From positions 3,043 to 67,042 of the forward strand of contig CAZIDN010000009.1 in the NCBI GenBank assembly GCA_964537875.1: a stretch of 64,000 nt of DNA, in the 5' to 3' direction. This document shows positions 3,005 through 64,000 of the stretch, one piece after another. The position numbers and the translations under genes were made by a program. The stretch is from an uncultured Eubacteriales bacterium. GTDB lineage: Bacteria; Acidobacteriota; Aminicenantia; Aminicenantales; UBA4085. The notes below the pieces were generated by a model. That model had not been told where the DNA came from, ran no database searches, and worked only from the letters and a program-made list of their open reading frames with translations. Numbering within the stretch: position 1 is the first letter of the stretch; each line of letters starts with the position of its first letter.

Positions 3005-6000
3005 GCGTCGTCCTTTCCGGCGGCCCGTCGGCCTTCGATCAGCCGGTAGAGGGCGGGGATTACGACCAAGGTCAGAAGCGTCGAGCTGATCATCCCTCCA
3101 GTCACGGCAATCGCCATCGGCGCCCGGAGCGAGGCGCCTTCGCCGATCCCCAGAATCATCGGAACGAGGGCCAGGATCGTCGTCAGGCTCATCATGAGAA
3201 TAGGCCGGATCCGGTGCCGGCCGGCAAAGATGATGGCCTCGTCGAGCCCCATGCCGGCCCGCCGGCTCTGGTTGATGAGGTCGATGAGAATGACGGAATC
3301 ATTGTCGGCGATGCCGACCAGGATGATCAGACCGATGATCGATATGCTGCTGAACGGAACTCCCGCGACGAACATGAGAAGGATCGCCCCGACGCCGGCC
3401 AGAGGCATGATAAAAAGGACGATGAGGGGATGGACCAGCGACTCGAATTGGGCGGCTAAAACCATATAAATGAGGACGATGGCGAGGATCAAGGCGAATT
3501 TGAGGTTCTTGAACGACTCGCGGCGGAGGAGTTCCTCGCCGGCAATCGACATGAAATACCCCTCGGGCAGAACCGTGTCCTTGATCGCCTCTTTGACGCG
3601 TGAGACGACCTTGTCGAACGACGTTCGTCCGGCGAGCTGGGCCCGGACCTCGGCGACGCGCGTCTGATTGTTGCGGATGATCTCCCGGGGCGATTCCGTC
3701 CGGACCAGCCGGGCAACATCGCTCAGGGGAACGCGAAGACCGGAGGAAGCAACCAGGACGAGGTCCTGGAGCTTCCCGACGGAGACCTTCGGGTTGCGGA
3801 GCATGATCTTGATGTATTCGCCCTTATCCTCCAGCTCACCCAAGTCGCTGCCGGCGAGAACGTTTTTGACCTGGTTGCCGATCGTGTCCGCTCTCAAGGA
3901 ATATCGAGCCGCCTGCGCCTTATCCACTTGGATATCGACTTCGGGACGGCCCGCTTGAAAGTTCGTCTCGACATTGGCCAGTTCGGGAAGCTTGGTGAGC
4001 TTGTCCTTGACGCCGTCGGACAGCTTGATTAGAGTGTCCAGGCCCTTGCCTTTGATTTCGACGACGAGGGGGGCATCTTGGGTCCCCAGCGCCGTCTGCA
4101 GCGTCGTCTGCTGCTTGATGAACCGGACGGTTAGGTCCGGGATCGCCGACAATTCCTTTTCCAGACTGGCGATGACACCCTGGAGCGACGGGAGTGATTC
4201 CTTCTTGAAGCCGACCTGAAGGACGGCATTATTCTCATCTTCGAGAGCTTCAGCCGTTGTCTGAGCCGTTCCCTTGGGCCCAACCCGGGCGAAAATGCTG
4301 TCAATCAGGTCTCCGGCCCGCTGCTCGACCAGAGCTTCGATGTTCCGGACGGCGCCTTCCGTTCGCTCGAGCCCCGTACCTTCGGGAAGCCTCAACTGAA
4401 TGACCAATTCTTTCTGGGCTTCCTGGGGCATGAATTCGCTTCCCATGAAACGAAGGCAAAAAATCCCGACTGCGACGAAGGCGAGAGTGATCGAGACGAC
4501 GAGCCAGCGTTTTCGTAGGATTCCCTGGAGAATCCGGCCGTAAAAATTGAACCGGACGGATTTGGACGCGGCGACCATGCTCCGGGGCTTGATCACTCGG
4601 GAAAAAAGCATCGGGATGACGACCATGGCTACGAGTATCGACGAGAGGAGGGAAAAGGCGACCGTCCAGGCCTGGTCTTTGAAAAGTTCCCCTGCCACGC
4701 CGTGGAGGTAGACGATCGGGAAGAAGACGACGATCGTCGTCAAGGTGGCGCTGGTGATGGCCCCGCCGACTTCCCCCGCTCCCCGGACGGCAGCGTCTTT
4801 AATGGACATCCCGCTTTCGACATGGCGAAAGATATTTTCGCCGACGACGATGGCGTTGTCGACAAGCATGCCGACGCCGAGGGCCAGCCCTCCGAGCGTC
4901 ATAATGTTCAGGGTCAGGTTGTTGAAATACATCAAATTGAACGTGGCGACGACGGAGATGGGAATAGCCATGCCGATTATGGCCGTGACGCCGATCTTCC
5001 GGAGGAAGAAATAGAGGACGAGGATGGCCAGGATGCCGCCGATGATTCCCGCTTCCTCCACCTCGCCGATCGCCGCCTTGATGAAGCCCGCCTGATCCTG
5101 GATGATATGGATTTGGTATCCGGGCAATGACCGGCGCAAAGAATCCAGTTCGTCCCGGATAGTCTTCGAGGCGGCCGTCGTATTGGACCCCGCTTCTTTA
5201 TAGATCTCCAGGGCAATGGCCGGCCGGCCGTTGTAGCGGACGACGTTCTCCGGCTCGCTCAGAACGAACCGGACATCCGCCACGTCCCGGAGATAGATGG
5301 CAGTTCTTTCCGCCGGCTGCTGGCTCGTCGCCTCCTTTGTCTTGTAGGCGACGATGAGGTTTCTGATGTCATCGAGCGATGTCAGCTGGCCCACGCCTCG
5401 GATCGTGTAGCGGATCCCCATTTCGGTGATCGAGCCGCCCGAAAGGTTGCGGTTGAAGTTCTGGATCGTGGAGCCGAGCTGGTCCATGGTCAGGCCGCAG
5501 GATTCGAGGGTGTAGGCATCCGTTTTGACCTCGATCTCCCGTCGGCGGTCTCCCAGGAGCTCGACGGCGGCAACGCCGGGGAGGCGGATGAGCTCGTTTC
5601 GGATGTTGTTTTCCGCAGTCAGTCGCAGCTTGTCCAGGTCGGTGATTTCCTCATGAGCCAGGACGGCCGTTACGACGGGCTGGGCGTTGGGGTCGAGCTG
5701 GGTGACGGCGATGCTGTCGGCTCCGCTATTTTGGCCGAAATCGGCGACGGCCTTCTGCAGGTCGAGATAGGCCTCCTGCATATCCGTATTCCACTGGTAT
5801 TCGGAAGTGATCAAGGCTTTGCCGACGCGGGATAGGGACAAGACGTTGGTGACGTTCCGGCCACGGGAGGCGAGCGATTCAATCCTCTCCACGAACTGCT
5901 TCTCCATCTCCTCCGGCGGCCGTTCGCCCGCCTGGACTTCTATATACAGCCGAGGGCTGTTGATCCGGGGCAGGAGGTCAATCCCTAATCTTTGGTACGA

Positions 6001-12310: not shown

Positions 12311-12504
12311 CTAATATCAACGCAATAAAATGACATCCCCGTATGGGCAGCGCATAGGCCGTCCTAAAGCCCCCGTAGCGGAGGGGGGCCCCGTCGGCTT
12401 TTCCGACGGGGGGAACCGACGGGACTGGTTCCCCCGGGCCCGGGGGCTAAGGGCGGCCTATGCGCCGCCCAGACATTGTCACTTTATTTATTACGTTTGT
12501 ATTA
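12311..12504. mobile_element. ~195-bp MITE/REP-like element, copy 1 (imperfect TIRs, internal IRs and hairpin core)
   Basis: Termini (C)TAATATCAACGCAATA and TATTACGTTTGTATTA; inner IR 12344-12374/12442-12471; homologous to 63557-63755. Confidence 0.75.
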
Positions 12505-30925: not shown

Positions 30926-30975
30926 GGGAGAATCTTAACACACAGAGAAAAATCTTAGCAAGCCAAAGGAAACAT

Positions 30976-31041
30976 GGGGTCAAACCTACTCGTTACGCAC
31001 GTAACCCTGGAGAATTATGCGTAAAGAGTAGGTTTGACCCC
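30976..31041. repeat. 66-bp REP-like palindrome (GGGGTCAAACCTACTC...GAGTAGGTTTGACCCC)
   Basis: Perfect 16-bp terminal IR; member of a family with copies at 32245, 37024, 40418, 43799 and 53497. Confidence 0.9.
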
Positions 31042-31105
31042 GGCTTTCATTTCTTTGGGAAGATATTATGGGAATCGTCGTCCAAATAAAGAGAGGAGTA
31101 CACTT

Positions 31106-32170: not shown

Positions 32171-32244
32171 GGAGCCTGTTTTCGCTGGATCGAAGTCAGG
32201 CCTCAACGCCTAGCATTTTTAAAGGATCATTTCAAAGCCAAAAT

Positions 32245-32310
32245 GGGGTCAAACCTACTCGTTACGTATAATTTCTAAGGGAAGCATGCGTAACGAGTAG
32301 GTTTGACCCC
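32245..32310. repeat. 66-bp REP-like palindrome
   Basis: GGGGTCAAACCTACTCGTTACG...CGTAACGAGTAGGTTTGACCCC, a perfect 22-bp IR. Confidence 0.9.
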
Positions 32311-32341
32311 ATTTCTGCCGTTGCAAGCCAACGCAGAACTG

Positions 32342-37023: not shown

Positions 37024-37089
37024 GGGGTCAAACCTACTCATTACGCAAGTTCCCCTGGAGAATTGCGCGTAACGAGTAGGTTTGACCCC
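37024..37089. repeat. 66-bp REP-like palindrome
   Basis: GGGGTCAAACCTACTC...GAGTAGGTTTGACCCC. Confidence 0.9.
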
Positions 37090-47496: not shown

Positions 47497-47736
47497 CCCG
47501 ACGGGTCCTGTCGGACACTCTTGGAGGGAAACCCTTATTCTGGGTTTCCCTCCAACGATCGCTTCGCTCCCTGCCATCCTTCCAAAGAGCATTTGACTAT
47601 GAATTCATGGGAGGATGCTCCTTGGAGGGGTAGCAGGGCGGGCGGGTATTCCCGCCGCCCCGTTAGAGGGGGACCCTATGAAAGGGTCCTCCTCCAAGTG
47701 TGTCCGGGGGGCCCCCGAACCACGCCACCCGTCGGG
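47497..47736. other. Highly structured multi-hairpin intergenic element (ncRNA or repeat)
   Basis: Closing IRs 47497-47506/47727-47736 (10/10) and 47512-47527/47691-47706 (15/16) enclose four internal hairpins. Confidence 0.6.
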
Positions 47737-53470: not shown

Positions 53471-53496
53471 CTTGATTTCTCTCCTGGGTCATCTCC

Positions 53497-53580
53497 GGGG
53501 TCGAACCTCAACAATCAACATGTTAAACGCCGACGGGATAAGAAGCTAGGAAAAAATGTTGATTGTTGAGGTTTGACCCC
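53497..53580. repeat. 84-bp long-arm variant of the GGGGTCAAACC palindrome
   Basis: GGGGTCGAACCTCAACAATCAACAT...ATGTTGATTGTTGAGGTTTGACCCC (24/25 IR). Confidence 0.85.
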
Positions 53581-53849
53581 GATCATTCTATTCCTCGCGA
53601 TGAGTATAGTGGCAAAAGGGGAAAAAGGCAAAAATGCTGGAACCTGCCGCGGCATGCCTCCCCCCGTCCGCGCTCAAGACTCCCCTTACCCACCACCATG
53701 AGCCTCGGGCGAGCGTGGGCATCCTACGCCACGCGACAGTCTTTTCACGAAATGCCGGGATTTGACTTCTCAGCTTCGGCACTATTAAAATTGTGCTGGA
53801 ACTGCCCAGAAGTCAAAAAGGATCACTTTTTCTGAAACTGAATTAGACA

Positions 53850-59586: not shown

Positions 59587-60846
59587 TTATTGATCCGCAA
59601 ACGGTTGGTCGATAGACACGGCTTCCATACCGCCCAGGAAGCGGCTGCCGTTTTCCGTGACGACCATGCAGTCCTCGGTCCGGACGCCGAATTCTCCGTA
59701 GATGTAGATTCCAGGCTCGTTGCTGAAGGTCATGCCGGGCAGGAGCTTCAGCATGTTGCCCTTCACGAGATAGGGATATTCATGCCCTTCCACCCCGATG
59801 CCGTGGCCGACCCTGTGGGCAAAATATTTATAGCCGGGCCCGTAGCCCGCCTCTTCGACGACCTTGCGGGCGGCGGCATCCACATCTTCGCAGCGGACGC
59901 CCGGCCGTGCCGCCCGCAGCGCCGCCGTCTGCGCTTTTTTGACGATGTCCCAGACAGCCCGCTGCCGATCCGTCGGCTTACCGAGAACGACGGTCCGGGT
60001 CACATCCGACCGAAAACCCTCGACGCCGCAGCCGCCGTCGACCATGACCACATCGCCGTCGCGAAGTGTTCGCGGGACTCTCGACCCGTGCGGAAAAGCC
60101 GTGCCGGCGCCGAACTGAGGCCCCCCGCCCCCGCTCGCTCCCATCTTCGAATGGGCGCTGCTGATGAGAGCCGACAGATCGCGCTGACTCATGCCTTCCC
60201 GGAGCTGTTTGAATCCTTCCCGGTAGGCCAGCTTGGTGATCTTGTTGGCCAGGTCCATATAGGCGATTTCCTTTTCCGTTTTCGTGCCCCGGCAGCCCTC
60301 TGTGACGACCGCGCCGTCGACCAGTTCCAGCCCCGGAGCGTCCCGGCCGATTCCGAAATAGACAAACGCGCTGGTGGACGGATTGATGCCCAGGCGTCCG
60401 CTTCCGACGCCCAGATCCTTCATGATTCCGGCGATGAGCTTATAGGGGCTTTCATGCTCCTCCCAGACGCGTATTTGCTGGCCGGGTGGGATGAGCTCTT
60501 CGGCCCGCTCAAGCTCAAAGGCCGGGCAGACCCAGACGGGACTTCCTTTGCGGCCGACCAGGGCGCCGAAGGTCCGCTCGCTGGTCCCCCAGCCGACCGT
60601 CGTGAAATAGACCAGGTTCGTGCTGCCGGTCAAAAACAATCCGTCGACCTTGTGGGCAGCCATCAATCCTCTGGCTTTCTCCAGCCGTGCTTCGTAATCT
60701 TCGGGCGCCAAGGGCTTGACTCCAGCCGTCATGTTTTCCAGCTTGGCCATTTCCGCCGCGGGCTCCTGCGAAAAAATATTTCTCACAAAGCCGAACGTCG
60801 CGATGGAAAGGCCTCCGATCTTTAAAAAATGCCGGCGAGATGCCAT
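59587..60846 (-). CDS. Xaa-Pro peptidase (M24B) with twin-arginine signal
   Basis: SRRHFLK, VDGG...SDVTRT, HRVGHGIG, HE, EPG and RTED. Start at ATG 60846. Confidence 0.93.
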   Translation of the reverse strand: MASRRHFLKIGGLSIATFGFVRNIFSQEPAAEMAKLENMTAGVKPLAPEDYEARLEKARGLMAAHKVDGLFLTGSTNLVYFTTVGWGTSERTFGALVGRKGSPVWVCPAFELERAEELIPPGQQIRVWEEHESPYKLIAGIMKDLGVGSGRLGINPSTSAFVYFGIGRDAPGLELVDGAVVTEGCRGTKTEKEIAYMDLANKITKLAYREGFKQLREGMSQRDLSALISSAHSKMGASGGGGPQFGAGTAFPHGSRVPRTLRDGDVVMVDGGCGVEGFRSDVTRTVVLGKPTDRQRAVWDIVKKAQTAALRAARPGVRCEDVDAAARKVVEEAGYGPGYKYFAHRVGHGIGVEGHEYPYLVKGNMLKLLPGMTFSNEPGIYIYGEFGVRTEDCMVVTENGSRFLGGMEAVSIDQPFADQ

Positions 60847-61001
60847 GTGTCGACTCCTTTGAGTGGGGGCGAGAAAAATGGATGGGAAAGGCCGCCCATC
60901 TTTAAAAATTCTCATAGACAGGTCTTAAACGTATATCACCGGCAACACTTGATGTCAAATATCTCACATTTGTTGGGGCTTAGTCCGGGAGCATTTCTAA
61001 A

Positions 61002-61145
61002 TAAGTGATTGCAAGGAGGCGTCTGCATCACCCCATAGGCCCCCATAGCGGAGGGGGGGCCCATCGGTTTTTCGATGGGGGGAACCGACGGGACTGGTTC
61101 CCAAGGGGGCCGGGGGTGATGCAGACGCCTCCTTGCAATCACTTA
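61002..61145. repeat. 144-bp element: perfect 33-bp IR arms around the same hairpin core as the 12311/63557 elements
   Basis: TAAGTGATTGCAAGGAGGCGTCTGCATCACCCC (61002-61034) pairs perfectly with 61113-61145. Core CATAGCGGAGGG...GGAACCGACGGGACTGGTTCCC. Confidence 0.85.
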
Positions 61146-61266
61146 AAGGGAGACCCTATCGCCTAGTCCCCATAGCATTGACTTTTCGAGCCGACTAAAG
61201 TACCTTGTAACTGATAAAGTCTTGGCCCCCAATCCGATTGAAGCTAAGCCTTCGAAGGAGGTATAG

Positions 61267-62656: not shown

Positions 62657-63574
62657 ATGTCTGTGTACGCCGGCTTCGACCTCGGAGGCACTCAGCTCAA
62701 GTATGGGCTCACCGACGAATCCGGCGTCGTTCTTTTCAAGGATAAAGCTCCCACCCCGCCGACCATCGGCGGGCTGATGGACCTCCTGGAATCTCTCTGG
62801 AAAGATCTCCAAAAAAGAGAGGCCGGGAAAATCAAAGCCGCGGGCTTCGGCATCCCTGGTATCTACAGTTTGAAGGAAAAGAAAATTTTCCAGTCGCCCA
62901 ACTATGCCGACCTGGACAACTTCGACTTGTATCCCGCCGTTTCCCGGTTCATCAAAGCGCCTTTCTGGATCGACAACGACGCCAACATGGCCGCCTTCGG
63001 CGAATGGTCATGCGGCGCGGGCCGGGGCGTTTCGAGTATGATCCTGCTCACCATCGGGACCGGCATCGGCGGCGGGATCATCCTCGACGGCAAGCTGTGG
63101 CAGGGAAGCTGCGGCTATGCCGGCGAGATCGGACATATCGTTGTGAACCCCAGGGGCATCCGGTGCAAGTGCGGCATCCAAGGATGTCTCGAAACCGAAG
63201 CCTCTGCCCCGGCGGTCGTCAGGAAGTATGCGGCCATTCGAAAAACAAACGAAGCGGTCACGGCCGAAGAAATCTATCACAGGGCCAAGGGGGGCGAGGA
63301 AGCCGCCCGCCGGGCTTTTGCTCAAGCGGGATATTATTTGGGGATCGGGCTCGGCATGGTCATCAACCTGCTCAACCCGGAGAAGATCCTGCTGGGCGGC
63401 GGTGTTATGACGACCGGCGAATACCTTTTAGCGCCGACCCTAGAGGAGGCCCGGAGGCGGTCCTATAAGGCCACGTTCTCCTGCTGTTCCATCGAAAAGG
63501 CCGGCCTGGGCAATGATGCCGGGTTGATCGGGGCCGCTTCCTGGGCCCGGGTCAATCTAATACAAACGCAATAA
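62657..63574 (+). CDS. ROK family sugar kinase (glucokinase-like)
   Basis: DLGGT, DNDANMAAFGE, GTGIGGG and GEIGHIVV...CKCGIQGCLE. Confidence 0.95.
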   Translation: MSVYAGFDLGGTQLKYGLTDESGVVLFKDKAPTPPTIGGLMDLLESLWKDLQKREAGKIKAAGFGIPGIYSLKEKKIFQSPNYADLDNFDLYPAVSRFIKAPFWIDNDANMAAFGEWSCGAGRGVSSMILLTIGTGIGGGIILDGKLWQGSCGYAGEIGHIVVNPRGIRCKCGIQGCLETEASAPAVVRKYAAIRKTNEAVTAEEIYHRAKGGEEAARRAFAQAGYYLGIGLGMVINLLNPEKILLGGGVMTTGEYLLAPTLEEARRRSYKATFSCCSIEKAGLGNDAGLIGAASWARVNLIQTQ

Positions 63575-63755
63575 ATAAAGTGACAATGTATGGGCGGCGA
63601 TTAGGCCGCCCTCAAGCCCCCATAGCGGAGGGGGACCCCGTCGGCTTTCCCGACGGGGGGAACCGACGGGACTGGTTCCCCGGGGCCCGGGGGCTGCGGG
63701 CGGCCTAATCGCCGCCCGAACGGGGATGTCATTTTAACTATTACGTTGATATTAG
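63557..63755. mobile_element. ~199-bp MITE/REP-like element, copy 2
   Basis: CTAATACAAACG...CGTTGATATTAG termini; perfect 20-bp inner IR 63592-63611/63698-63717. Arms match copy 1 in reverse complement, while the core matches in direct orientation. Confidence 0.78.
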
Positions 63756-63813: not shown

Positions 63814-63990
63814 AATTATTGGGATCTCTTCCTTTGTGTGTGGGGAAAAATCGTTTGGGAACCGATCCGGAGACAGCCTCGCTCCCCATCCGGGTTTTTA
63901 ACGTCGTTCCCGAGCCCTCCATGGTCGCTTCGGCCGTCTCCTGACCGTTTCCCTTTCCTCCCCACACGAAATGGAAGAGAACCAATTATT
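63814..63990. repeat. ~177-bp element bounded by imperfect inverted repeats
   Basis: TCTCTTCCTTTGTGTGTGGGGA (63825-63846) pairs imperfectly with TCCCCACACGAAATGGAAGAGA (63959-63980). The right part recurs at 26606-26668. Confidence 0.65.
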
Positions 63991-64000
63991 GTTATTAAAG

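Follow-up and report, generated by a model that had tools for sequence, protein, structure and literature searches.

The M24/tatA locus and the limits of the element

The window analysed here is a stretch of 64,000 nucleotides from an uncultured bacterium of the Aminicenantales (contig CAZIDN010000009.1, positions 3,043 to 67,042), and the intergenic region between its divergently oriented M24 and tatA genes contains a perfect inverted repeat around a structured centre, hereafter the core, which recurs at two other sites of the window. A repeat search of the window placed the perfect 33-nt arms at 61002-61034 and 61113-61145, with 78 nt separating them, and thereby reproduced the arms reported in the initial annotation. 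That annotation had taken 61002-61145 as the whole element; the inverted repeat is real, but the true unit is longer and is flanked by direct repeats. Because orthologous loci without the element, compared with loci that carry it, fix the boundaries, its limits are set at 60987-61160. We read this feature as a 174-bp MITE (a miniature transposable element with inverted repeats), which lies in the M24/tatA intergenic region and has no gene of its own. That it lies between divergent M24 and tatA promoters is plausible from its position; a promoter scan round the site returned no site passing its rule, so that the TTGACA-like and TTGACT hexamers on its two sides are at most tentative promoter elements. 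The window contains neither tRNA nor tmRNA genes.

Read on the plus strand, the whole non-autonomous element (60987-61160) consists of IS66-like termini, a long stem and the core, a combination called chassis C here. It begins with an outer left terminus (60987-61001, GGGAGCATTTCTAAA; family consensus GGAAGCATCTCTnAA) and the left arm of the perfect repeat (61002-61034), which is paired in the minimum-energy folds, and a 3-nt ATA bulge (61035-61037) then lies directly 5' of the 5' strand of stem P1, GGCCCCC (61038-61044). There follow the purine-rich, conserved junction strand J12 (61045-61059, ATAGCGGAGGGGGGG), unpaired in the fold; the P2 hairpin CCCATCGG-TTTT-TCGATGGG (61060-61079), which differs in sequence and length among copies; the P3 hairpin (61081-61101), whose 21-mer served as search probe; and the 3' strand of P1, GGGGGCC (61105-61111), both strands of P1 being defined by covariation and fold. 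The right arm of the perfect repeat (61113-61145) and a degenerate outer right terminus (61146-61160, AAGGGAGACCCTATC; consensus AAAcGGAGATGCTTAC, reverse complement GTAAGCATCTC) complete the element. The stretch 60986-61161 (176 nt) folds into one long hairpin with a branched tip and does so far better than its shuffles, with energies of -118.3 kcal/mol for RNA (z = -11.6) and -64.8 kcal/mol for DNA (z = -11.8). The outermost minimum-energy pair was rejected as a marker of the element boundary, as it runs over into noise.

Directly outside the element, the left repeat (60978-60986, GCTTAGTCC, read directly) and the right repeat (61161-61169, GCCTAGTCC) are identical at 8/9 positions and form a putative target-site duplication. 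Taken as the 8-bp pair CTTAGTCC / CCTAGTCC, they agree at 7/8 positions, rising to 8/9 once the adjacent G is counted, in agreement with the 8-bp target-site duplication of IS66-derived MITEs. The orthologous copy in L200 (fetched loci are labelled L and a number) is flanked by GCCTAATCC / GCCTAGTCC, a pair equivalent to that of the window.

Orthologous loci were obtained by a metagenome scan with the neighbouring methyltransferase and by a look-up of identical TatA proteins (76-96% DNA identity), and the interval between the conserved flanks ...GATGTCAAATA and ATTGACTTTTC... was compared. The site proved polymorphic for the insertion and includes empty alleles: the interval measures only 13 nt in L119 and only 28 nt in L166, and L195 and L196 have a short empty allele. 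The 61002 element is carried by L116/L194 and L200, and L202, which starts inside the element, is the same as the window from the right arm on (same strain). At the same site, L113-115, L117, L193, L199 and L201 bear a different palindromic element of 400-500 nt, L120 holds another element, and L118 retains a one-armed remnant.

The outer 15 nt on each side of the element belong to termini that are conserved in many Aminicenantes assemblies, and the same arm family was recognized in L003, L010, L032, L055, L057, L070, L071, L085 and L116. The window left end differs at 3 positions from the family left consensus GGAAGCATCTCTnAATATGTGAT (also scored as AAGCATCTCTNAATATGTGAT), with 0 such matches expected by chance; the family right consensus is ATCACAyAAAcGGAGATGCTTAC. 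The family consensus ends are GGAAGCAT... / ...ATGCTTAC, with the termini also written GGAAGCAT... / ...GATGCTTAC; the consensus left end is GGAAGCATCTC, and the consensus right end ...GAGATGCTTAC has the reverse complement GTAAGCATCTC. The window copy itself ends in GGGAGCATTTC on the left and in GATAGGGTCTC on the right, the latter degenerate relative to the IS66-like consensus, and its orthologues L116 and L200 share this degenerate right end. Direct repeats of 8 bp also flank L102 (CCTGACAC / CCTGACAC) and L051 (CCTGGCAC / CCTGACAC, 7/8 identical).

IS66 inverted repeats begin with GTAAGCG, and the elements generate 8-bp direct repeats (PMC11946415). Since a terminus starting with GTAAGC, together with direct repeats of 8 bp, is given there as characteristic of IS66, we read the 61002 element as an IS66-like miniature transposon, with the caveat that its own right end is degenerate. 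Like IS66-derived MITEs, the element is small, lacks an open reading frame, has an 8-bp direct repeat and is polymorphic for presence and absence in close relatives, and the consensus terminal repeat of its family starts with GTAAGC at one end. Unlike such MITEs, its interior is a conserved structured module common to unrelated elements and not filler derived from an insertion sequence (IS); in addition, the right end of the window copy is degenerate, and the parent IS was not found among the fetched loci, where no terminus pair encloses a gene-sized interior.

The core is a covarying three-way junction

The window contains three plus-strand copies of the 21-mer GGAACCGACGGGACTGGTTCC (at 12412, 61081 and 63659), where chance would give none, and a covariance model found exactly these three cores and no diverged ones. 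The core shared by the three window elements, as the initial annotation had proposed, is therefore upheld. When the three elements were aligned, they had a centre of ~90 nt in common, and the arms of the 61002 element were unrelated to those of the other two. The initial annotation had described its arms as unrelated to those of the other two, which holds within the window, but they are not unique, since they form a family with conserved termini in other genomes.

Comparison of 51 diverse copies resolved the core into a three-way junction of ~90 nt with four parts (P1, J12, P2 and P3). P1 is variable and covarying, with pairs such as AGACGCA/TGCGTCT, CAAGGCACA/TGTGCCTTG and GGACCCC/GGGGTCC in addition to GGCCCCC/GGGGGCC of the window. 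The unpaired J12 strand (consensus RTAGYGGARGGGG) is almost invariant, and its columns T12, A13, G14, G16, G17, A18 and G21-23 are invariant in the 51 aligned copies. P2 starts with CCC, ends with GGG and is otherwise variable in sequence and length, with 71 distinct segments and 50 distinct stems, and in other copies it takes up nested inserts of 60-170 nt. P3 has the form GGAACC-GACGGGACT-GGTTCC. On this structure, 62 cells were changed on both sides of a pair compared with 16.4 in shuffles, a value reached by 0/500 shuffles, and covariation was much worse when the partner was slid by 1-3 columns. The compensatory difference noticed earlier between window copies, CCCATCGG/CGATGGG versus CCCGTCGG/CGACGGG, is real and is part of this larger covarying series.

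The non-Watson-Crick pairs in P2 are unequally distributed, with 26 G·T or T·G pairs versus 4 A·C or C·A pairs. Correspondingly, the intermediate CCCGTCGG/CCGATGGG is common, and the mirror intermediate CCCATCGG/CCGACGGG does not occur among the P2 segments. Because G·T is tolerated in P2 and A·C is not, the wobble bias points to selection on one strand, presumably in a single-stranded form (RNA or single-stranded DNA). In the arms the bias is weak (G·T 173 vs A·C 134).

No match was obtained with Rfam 15 at the gathering score in the window. At permissive thresholds, the window copy returned only chance matches to microRNAs and small RNAs, and the searched cores from Patescibacteria (candidate phyla radiation, CPR) and Saccharicenans returned none. 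Nor did the core match any known IS or intron, and it thus does not appear as a fragment of one. A retron msr-msd was considered, and neither a recurrent neighbouring gene across 112 loci nor an Rfam msr match was found; the TAGC beside the stem presumably has only a likeness to the retron priming motif. Two other pairings were rejected: a small hairpin CCCCC-GTAGCGGA-GGGGG replacing P1 is not kept in L022, L031 and L059, and pairing of the P3 loop with the P2 5' arm does not fit a P2 that varies and a loop that is constant.

Some core copies bear inserts of their own. A palindromic element with the ends GACACTCTTGGAAGG...CCTTCCAAGAGTGTC, one copy of which lies at ~47514-47640 of the window and others in L113 and L120, is inserted in the P2 loop of the core in L017, L038, L103 and L032 and in the P3 loop in L161 and L162, and it also lies inside other palindromic elements, which suggests that nesting at hairpin apices is a habit. 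A related insert of ~110 nt (...AGACTTTAATCTTAAATATTACCC...CAGGGAGGGA...) occupies the 5' junction of the core in L019 and L054, where it displaces the TAG motif between the P1 strand and CGGAGGGGG.

Two further copies in an IS630-like chassis

The second and third core-bearing elements of the window lie on the plus strand at 12312-12504 (core model match 12365-12456) and 63558-63754 (core model match 63612-63703) and are bounded by TA...TA, within CTAG in the case of the third. Both belong to an IS630-like chassis, chassis A, and have the common terminal repeat TAATACAAACGCAATAA, which is conserved over ~29 copies in other genomes. The outer arms of the 63558 copy are flipped relative to the core when compared with the 12312 copy. 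The last three bases of the 12312-12504 element are the stop codon of a minus-strand ABC-ATPase gene, and the 63558-63754 element is inserted in the last codons of a ROK gene, the C-terminus of which is altered; an exact-protein look-up of the gene adjoining the 12312 element returned no record.

At the 63558 site, the empty allele of L195-L198 reads caatCTAGaatc and the window reads caatC-TA[element]TA-Gaatc; the empty allele of L117 reads ttTAga. Because an empty CTAG allele is matched by a filled allele with TA at both ends, the comparison proves that TA was duplicated within CTAG at the 63558 insertion. Across the collection, 18 copies are bounded by TA-type ends, and the base immediately outside TA is C or T at the left end and in most cases G at the right end. 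IS630-family elements duplicate TA and prefer CTAG (PMC2170065 and the work of Tenzen and Ohtsubo cited there). The 12312 and 63558 elements are IS630-like miniature transposons that duplicate TA. TA had initially been noted at the ends of all three window elements; it is the target duplication for these two, but in the 61002 element the TA that borders the perfect repeat falls inside the element. An IS630-type transposase gene was not identified for the chassis A elements, the genome-collection scan having used the core as query.

IS630/Tc1-mariner-derived bacterial MITEs, for which Correia elements and RUP may serve as examples, resemble the 12312 and 63558 elements in TA duplication (the target being proven in one case, CTAG), in terminal inverted repeats of ~18-25 bp, in location at gene ends and in folding into a long hairpin. 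The window elements differ in that their central module is identical to that of the IS66-like element and in that the core flips relative to the ends.

A coreless form of chassis A was found at the same site. In L113-115, L193 and L199, the 63558 insertion is present as a 91-bp element whose apex is a single short palindrome H (GGGCGGC-GCTTAG-GCCGCCC), and the window layout is H, core and inverted H, with H being GGGCGGC-GATTAG-GCCGCCC (GGGCGGCGATTAGGCCGCCC). L119 has the 91-bp coreless element in the opposite orientation. The coreless form may be a deletion product or the ancestral chassis, and three routes fit it: a deletion between the GCCGCCC direct repeats of 7 nt, ectopic conversion by which another family member served as donor, and active insertion of a core unit. 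Immediately downstream of the third core-bearing element, at 63824-63992, the window has a further palindromic element (starting TCTCTTCCTTTGTGTGTGGGG and ending CCCCACACGAAATGGAAGAGA in core orientation), and related sequence recurs in orthologous loci.

Distribution of the core and mosaicism of its arms

The exact 21-mer was found in more than 112 stretches of the species-representative genome collection, and 117 exact P3 matches were counted in the 112 fetched loci and the window; this count and the assignments below hold among the matches listed. The assemblies are mostly labelled Aminicenantes or Saccharicenans, with one Desulfaltia and several Eubacteriales/Clostridiales, and six loci from five Patescibacteria (CPR) assemblies hold the exact P3. 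Viral contigs, phage records and plasmid records gave no match to the core. Chassis A, with IS630-like ends, accounts for ~29 of the 117 copies, and chassis B and C, with IS66-like ends, for ~25. Further arm sets comprise the L050/L086/L095 type, the L022/L059/L110 type, a Saccharicenans type and CPR types, and at least 3 further arm families carry the core in Aminicenantes besides the IS630-like and IS66-like ones. The arms of the collected cores thus vary widely and are not confined to two fixed larger elements, and the many arm sets (two main families and several smaller), together with the covarying stems, bear out the initial view of the core as a conserved modular unit.

Similarity among these elements is mosaic. 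Chassis A and B have a common extended inner stem beside the core, and B and C have common termini. Furthermore, B/C termini enclose a different interior at L072:4283-4520, A termini enclose a different interior at L091:1482-1722, and at L006:773 the termini stand with almost no interior between them. The core occurs in both orientations relative to the outer arms (12312 versus 63558, L029 versus L023, and L090).

Across 112 loci, no neighbouring protein family was enriched, only housekeeping families and spurious antisense frames being recovered, and no transposase, reverse transcriptase or HUH gene appeared in that enrichment. The orientation of the core was random with respect to its flanking genes (--18, -+12, +-11, ++10) and to local GC skew (43 vs 52). 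The former opposes an oriented role of the core as terminator or 3' untranslated region, and the latter gives no support for lagging-strand targeting.

Several copies stand in distinct contexts. In Saccharicenans, L031 (3039-3353) and L060 (5831-6361) contain tandem core arrays, with a period of 106 nt in L031 and a period of 144 nt with AT-rich spacers in L060; the first two units of L031 are truncated in the P3 loop and continue into an unrelated C-rich stretch, and a right arm is found in its last unit alone. In Patescibacteria, L094 (~295-427, JBBTYS010000040.1) has a core with a large P2 insert, in frame within an open reading frame with a GIY-YIG (UvrC-like) N-terminal domain, to which the core adds ~50 residues. 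L082 (~4065-4146, JBBTRD010000045.1) has a core in sense orientation in the short gap between frames that we take to encode ribosomal proteins L3 and L4 (rplC/rplD), so that this core would belong to the operon transcript. The core elements presumably resemble pneumococcal BOX elements and Rickettsia palindromic elements in being mosaic, modular small repeats, and the Rickettsia elements resemble the L094 core in their in-frame position inside a reading frame; there is no sequence relation to either.

Evolution of the arms

The window, L116 and L200 are three orthologous copies of one insertion and have the degenerate right end in common. Their inner left arms read GCAAGGAGGCGTCTGCATCACCCC in the window, GCAAGGAGGAGTCTGAGTCACCCC in L116 and GCAGGGAGGTGTCTGAGTCACCCC in L200. 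Four inner-arm sites vary among the three orthologues, with at least 5 substitutions, and every one of these changes is mirrored on the opposite arm, including one site with three states, each of which is compensated; two further arm sites are unmirrored, both in L200. Mirrored changes at a flanking divergence of 4-14% are too fast for ordinary compensatory evolution and thus indicate copying between the arms. In L200, moreover, the entire core lies in reverse complement at this locus, and this in-place inversion is direct evidence of arm-to-arm recombination. Taken together, these data point to recombination and conversion between the arms, or to quasipalindrome correction, as the explanation of both the flips and the perfect inner arms.

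The outer termini are asymmetric between left (GGAAGC...AATATGTGAT) and right (GTAAGC...CCGTTTGTGTGAT), and the asymmetry is kept in the orthologues and across genomes, which argues against wholesale regeneration of the arms, as this would erase it. The initial annotation had suggested that arms are captured or regenerated around the core; this suggestion finds little support, as the outer parts are inherited terminal repeats of MITE families, and it is replaced here by inherited transposon ends combined with arm-to-arm recombination or conversion.

The 61002 locus has in common with quasipalindrome correction and arm-to-arm conversion that substitutions are mirrored and the segment between the arms inverts, but these are names of a process and not of an element family, and the comparison draws on three orthologues. 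Both core orientations occur at this one locus (window and L200), as could be expected of an invertible DNA switch (inverton); the core also flips at unrelated loci, and no site passes the rule of the promoter scan.

Interpretation and alternatives

The reading that we favour, with a probability of about 0.6, is that the 61002 feature is a MITE with a conserved structured passenger core, mobilized in trans, with its arms maintained by arm-to-arm conversion. Under this reading, DDE transposases of the IS66 and IS630 types, encoded at other places, would mobilize the chassis in trans, and the core would be a passenger module dispensable for the action of these enzymes. The core may be kept by selection on one single-stranded form, either RNA or one DNA strand, and would most likely act as a binding or structural site that aids the persistence or spread of the repeats. 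It might pass from one chassis to another when dispersed palindromic repeats recombine or undergo gene conversion, or when it inserts at the apex of a hairpin, and the recombination and conversion that probably keep the inner arms perfectly complementary could be the same process that flips the core.

Several observations weigh against this reading. An autonomous IS66- or IS630-like element with matching ends was not found in a genome-collection scan that used the core and not the ends; the right terminus of the window copy is degenerate and its direct repeat imperfect; and direct repeats are unreadable for several B/C copies. The coreless 91-bp chassis A form, found twice and once in each orientation, would also fit a core that inserts actively. 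Furthermore, a passenger without a part in DDE transposition would not ordinarily be expected to retain a hairpin of 21 nt and a junction of 12 nt unchanged from phylum to phylum, and some essential role of the core must therefore exist. The invariance of P3 is partly a product of the exact 21-mer search. It should also be noted that the G·T excess in P2 counts related copies and not independent events.

As readings of the core, a passenger selected on a single strand and exchanged by recombination is ranked first, followed by a REPIN-like unit mobilized by an HUH enzyme and then by a functional RNA. The second of these holds that the core and its immediate stem are themselves the mobile unit, a single-stranded DNA hairpin of the REPIN type (built from repetitive extragenic palindromes, REPs) that is moved by an HUH/Y1 transposase (RAYT/TIRYT) and inserts in hairpin apices, including those of other MITEs; we regard it as rather unlikely. 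A REPIN consists of two inverted REPs plus a spacer (PMC3337134), and in chassis A the core lies between the palindrome H and its inverted copy, which is this layout. The strand-specific wobble bias of P2, the coreless 91-bp form with a single H at the 63558 site and elsewhere, the other small palindromic elements inserted in P2 and P3 loops, and the conserved R-TAG motif in the junction all agree with such a unit, and REP dimers nested in longer palindromes as well as Acidobacteria-specific TIRYT genes have been described (PMC3733652). The tag, however, occurs once per element, in the junction beside P1 and not at the ends of H, so that the GTAG/CGTC arrangement of REPs, with GTAG at the outer end of the REP, is not reproduced. 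Moreover, an H-core-inverted H arrangement cannot come from simple insertion with direct target duplication, and P1 and the outer stems differ between arm families, which would leave the unit without fixed ends. The neighbours of 112 loci contained no Y1/HUH gene, no search having been aimed at Y1/HUH, and the orientation bias relative to GC skew that is expected for insertion in the lagging-strand template was absent, the 8-kb skew being a noisy proxy.

The core elements share with REPIN/REP systems (RAYT/TIRYT) the inverted short palindromes around a spacer in one long hairpin, singlet remnants and signs of strand-specific constraint, as well as clustering, tandem arrays and nesting in longer palindromes (PMC3733652, PMC3337134). 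They differ in that the spacer is the most conserved part here, whereas in REPINs it is the REPs, in that the GTAG-like tag is internal, and in that whole elements have target-site duplications.

A still less probable reading has MITEs carrying the core as cargo that functions as a structured RNA, for instance a self-cleaving ribozyme, an aptamer or a small RNA that binds protein, with the long arms serving as a processing stem. The three-way junction with covarying P1 and P2 and a conserved junction strand and loop would suit an RNA, as would the tolerance of G·U-type wobbles on one strand only, the large length variation of P2, which recalls expansion segments, the tandem arrays of Saccharicenans (periods of 106 and 144 nt) and the one CPR copy in sense orientation between the putative rplC and rplD frames. 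Opposed to it are the lack of any Rfam family match at any threshold tried, the random orientation with respect to neighbouring genes, which extends to divergent gene pairs like M24/tatA, and the flipping of the core relative to the chassis, by which no fixed promoter can drive it. Finally, a mechanism in which template switching, or synthesis primed by a hairpin, newly captures or regenerates the arms, so that any flanking DNA could become an arm of the core, would account for inner arms perfect over 33 bp and for mirrored substitutions that need one arm copied from the other, but it is very improbable given that the outer arms are conserved family termini in many genomes with their left/right asymmetry kept in orthologues, that arms are dissimilar to the DNA flanking the insertion sites, and that in-place inversion points to recombination between existing arms.

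The core elements are a variant of the known small bacterial repeats, notable in that one structure is retained across phyla and between transposon ends that are unrelated to each other. MITEs are usually treated as ends plus filler; here, a conserved structure lies inside two mechanistically unrelated types of end, in that TA-duplicating ends and 8-9-bp-duplicating ends carry the same covarying structure with its strand-specific constraint, which is also present in the tiny CPR genomes. A more speculative possibility, to which we attach perhaps one chance in a few, is that the core is a functional nucleic-acid module not described before, for example an RNA that cleaves itself or binds a ligand or protein, or an HUH single-stranded DNA origin, and a selfish passenger that jumps between unrelated MITEs and has crossed between Acidobacteriota (Aminicenantes) and CPR. 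Should the core be biochemically active or have a protein partner dedicated to it, it would represent a new structured motif from uncultured phyla, and it would be a passenger that spreads by riding other parasites. The M24/tatA locus also offers a clean natural example of palindrome arms that evolve in concert around a centre that inverts in place. For annotation, core-bearing elements change the ends of genes, as with the ROK C-terminus and the ABC-ATPase stop codon, and to judge from where they lie, those between divergently oriented genes may affect expression.

Other repeats in and around the window

Hairpin repeats with arms GGGGTCAAACCTACTCGTTACG... or GGGGTCGAACCTCAACAATCAACATG... lie at 30965-31052, 32241-32314, 37024-37089 and 53496-53581 of the window, and the terminal sequence of these four also bounds the 400-500-nt element at the M24/tatA site in L113-115, L117, L193, L199 and L201. 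Two direct copies of a ~30-nt unit, GATGG(A/G)AAAGGCC(T/G)CC(G/C)ATCTTTAAAAA, are present at 60802-60830 and 60881-60911, close to or inside the beginning of the M24 frame given in the list of reading frames. Each unit is a small hairpin followed by a T-rich run, and one of the two was called terminator-like on the minus strand.

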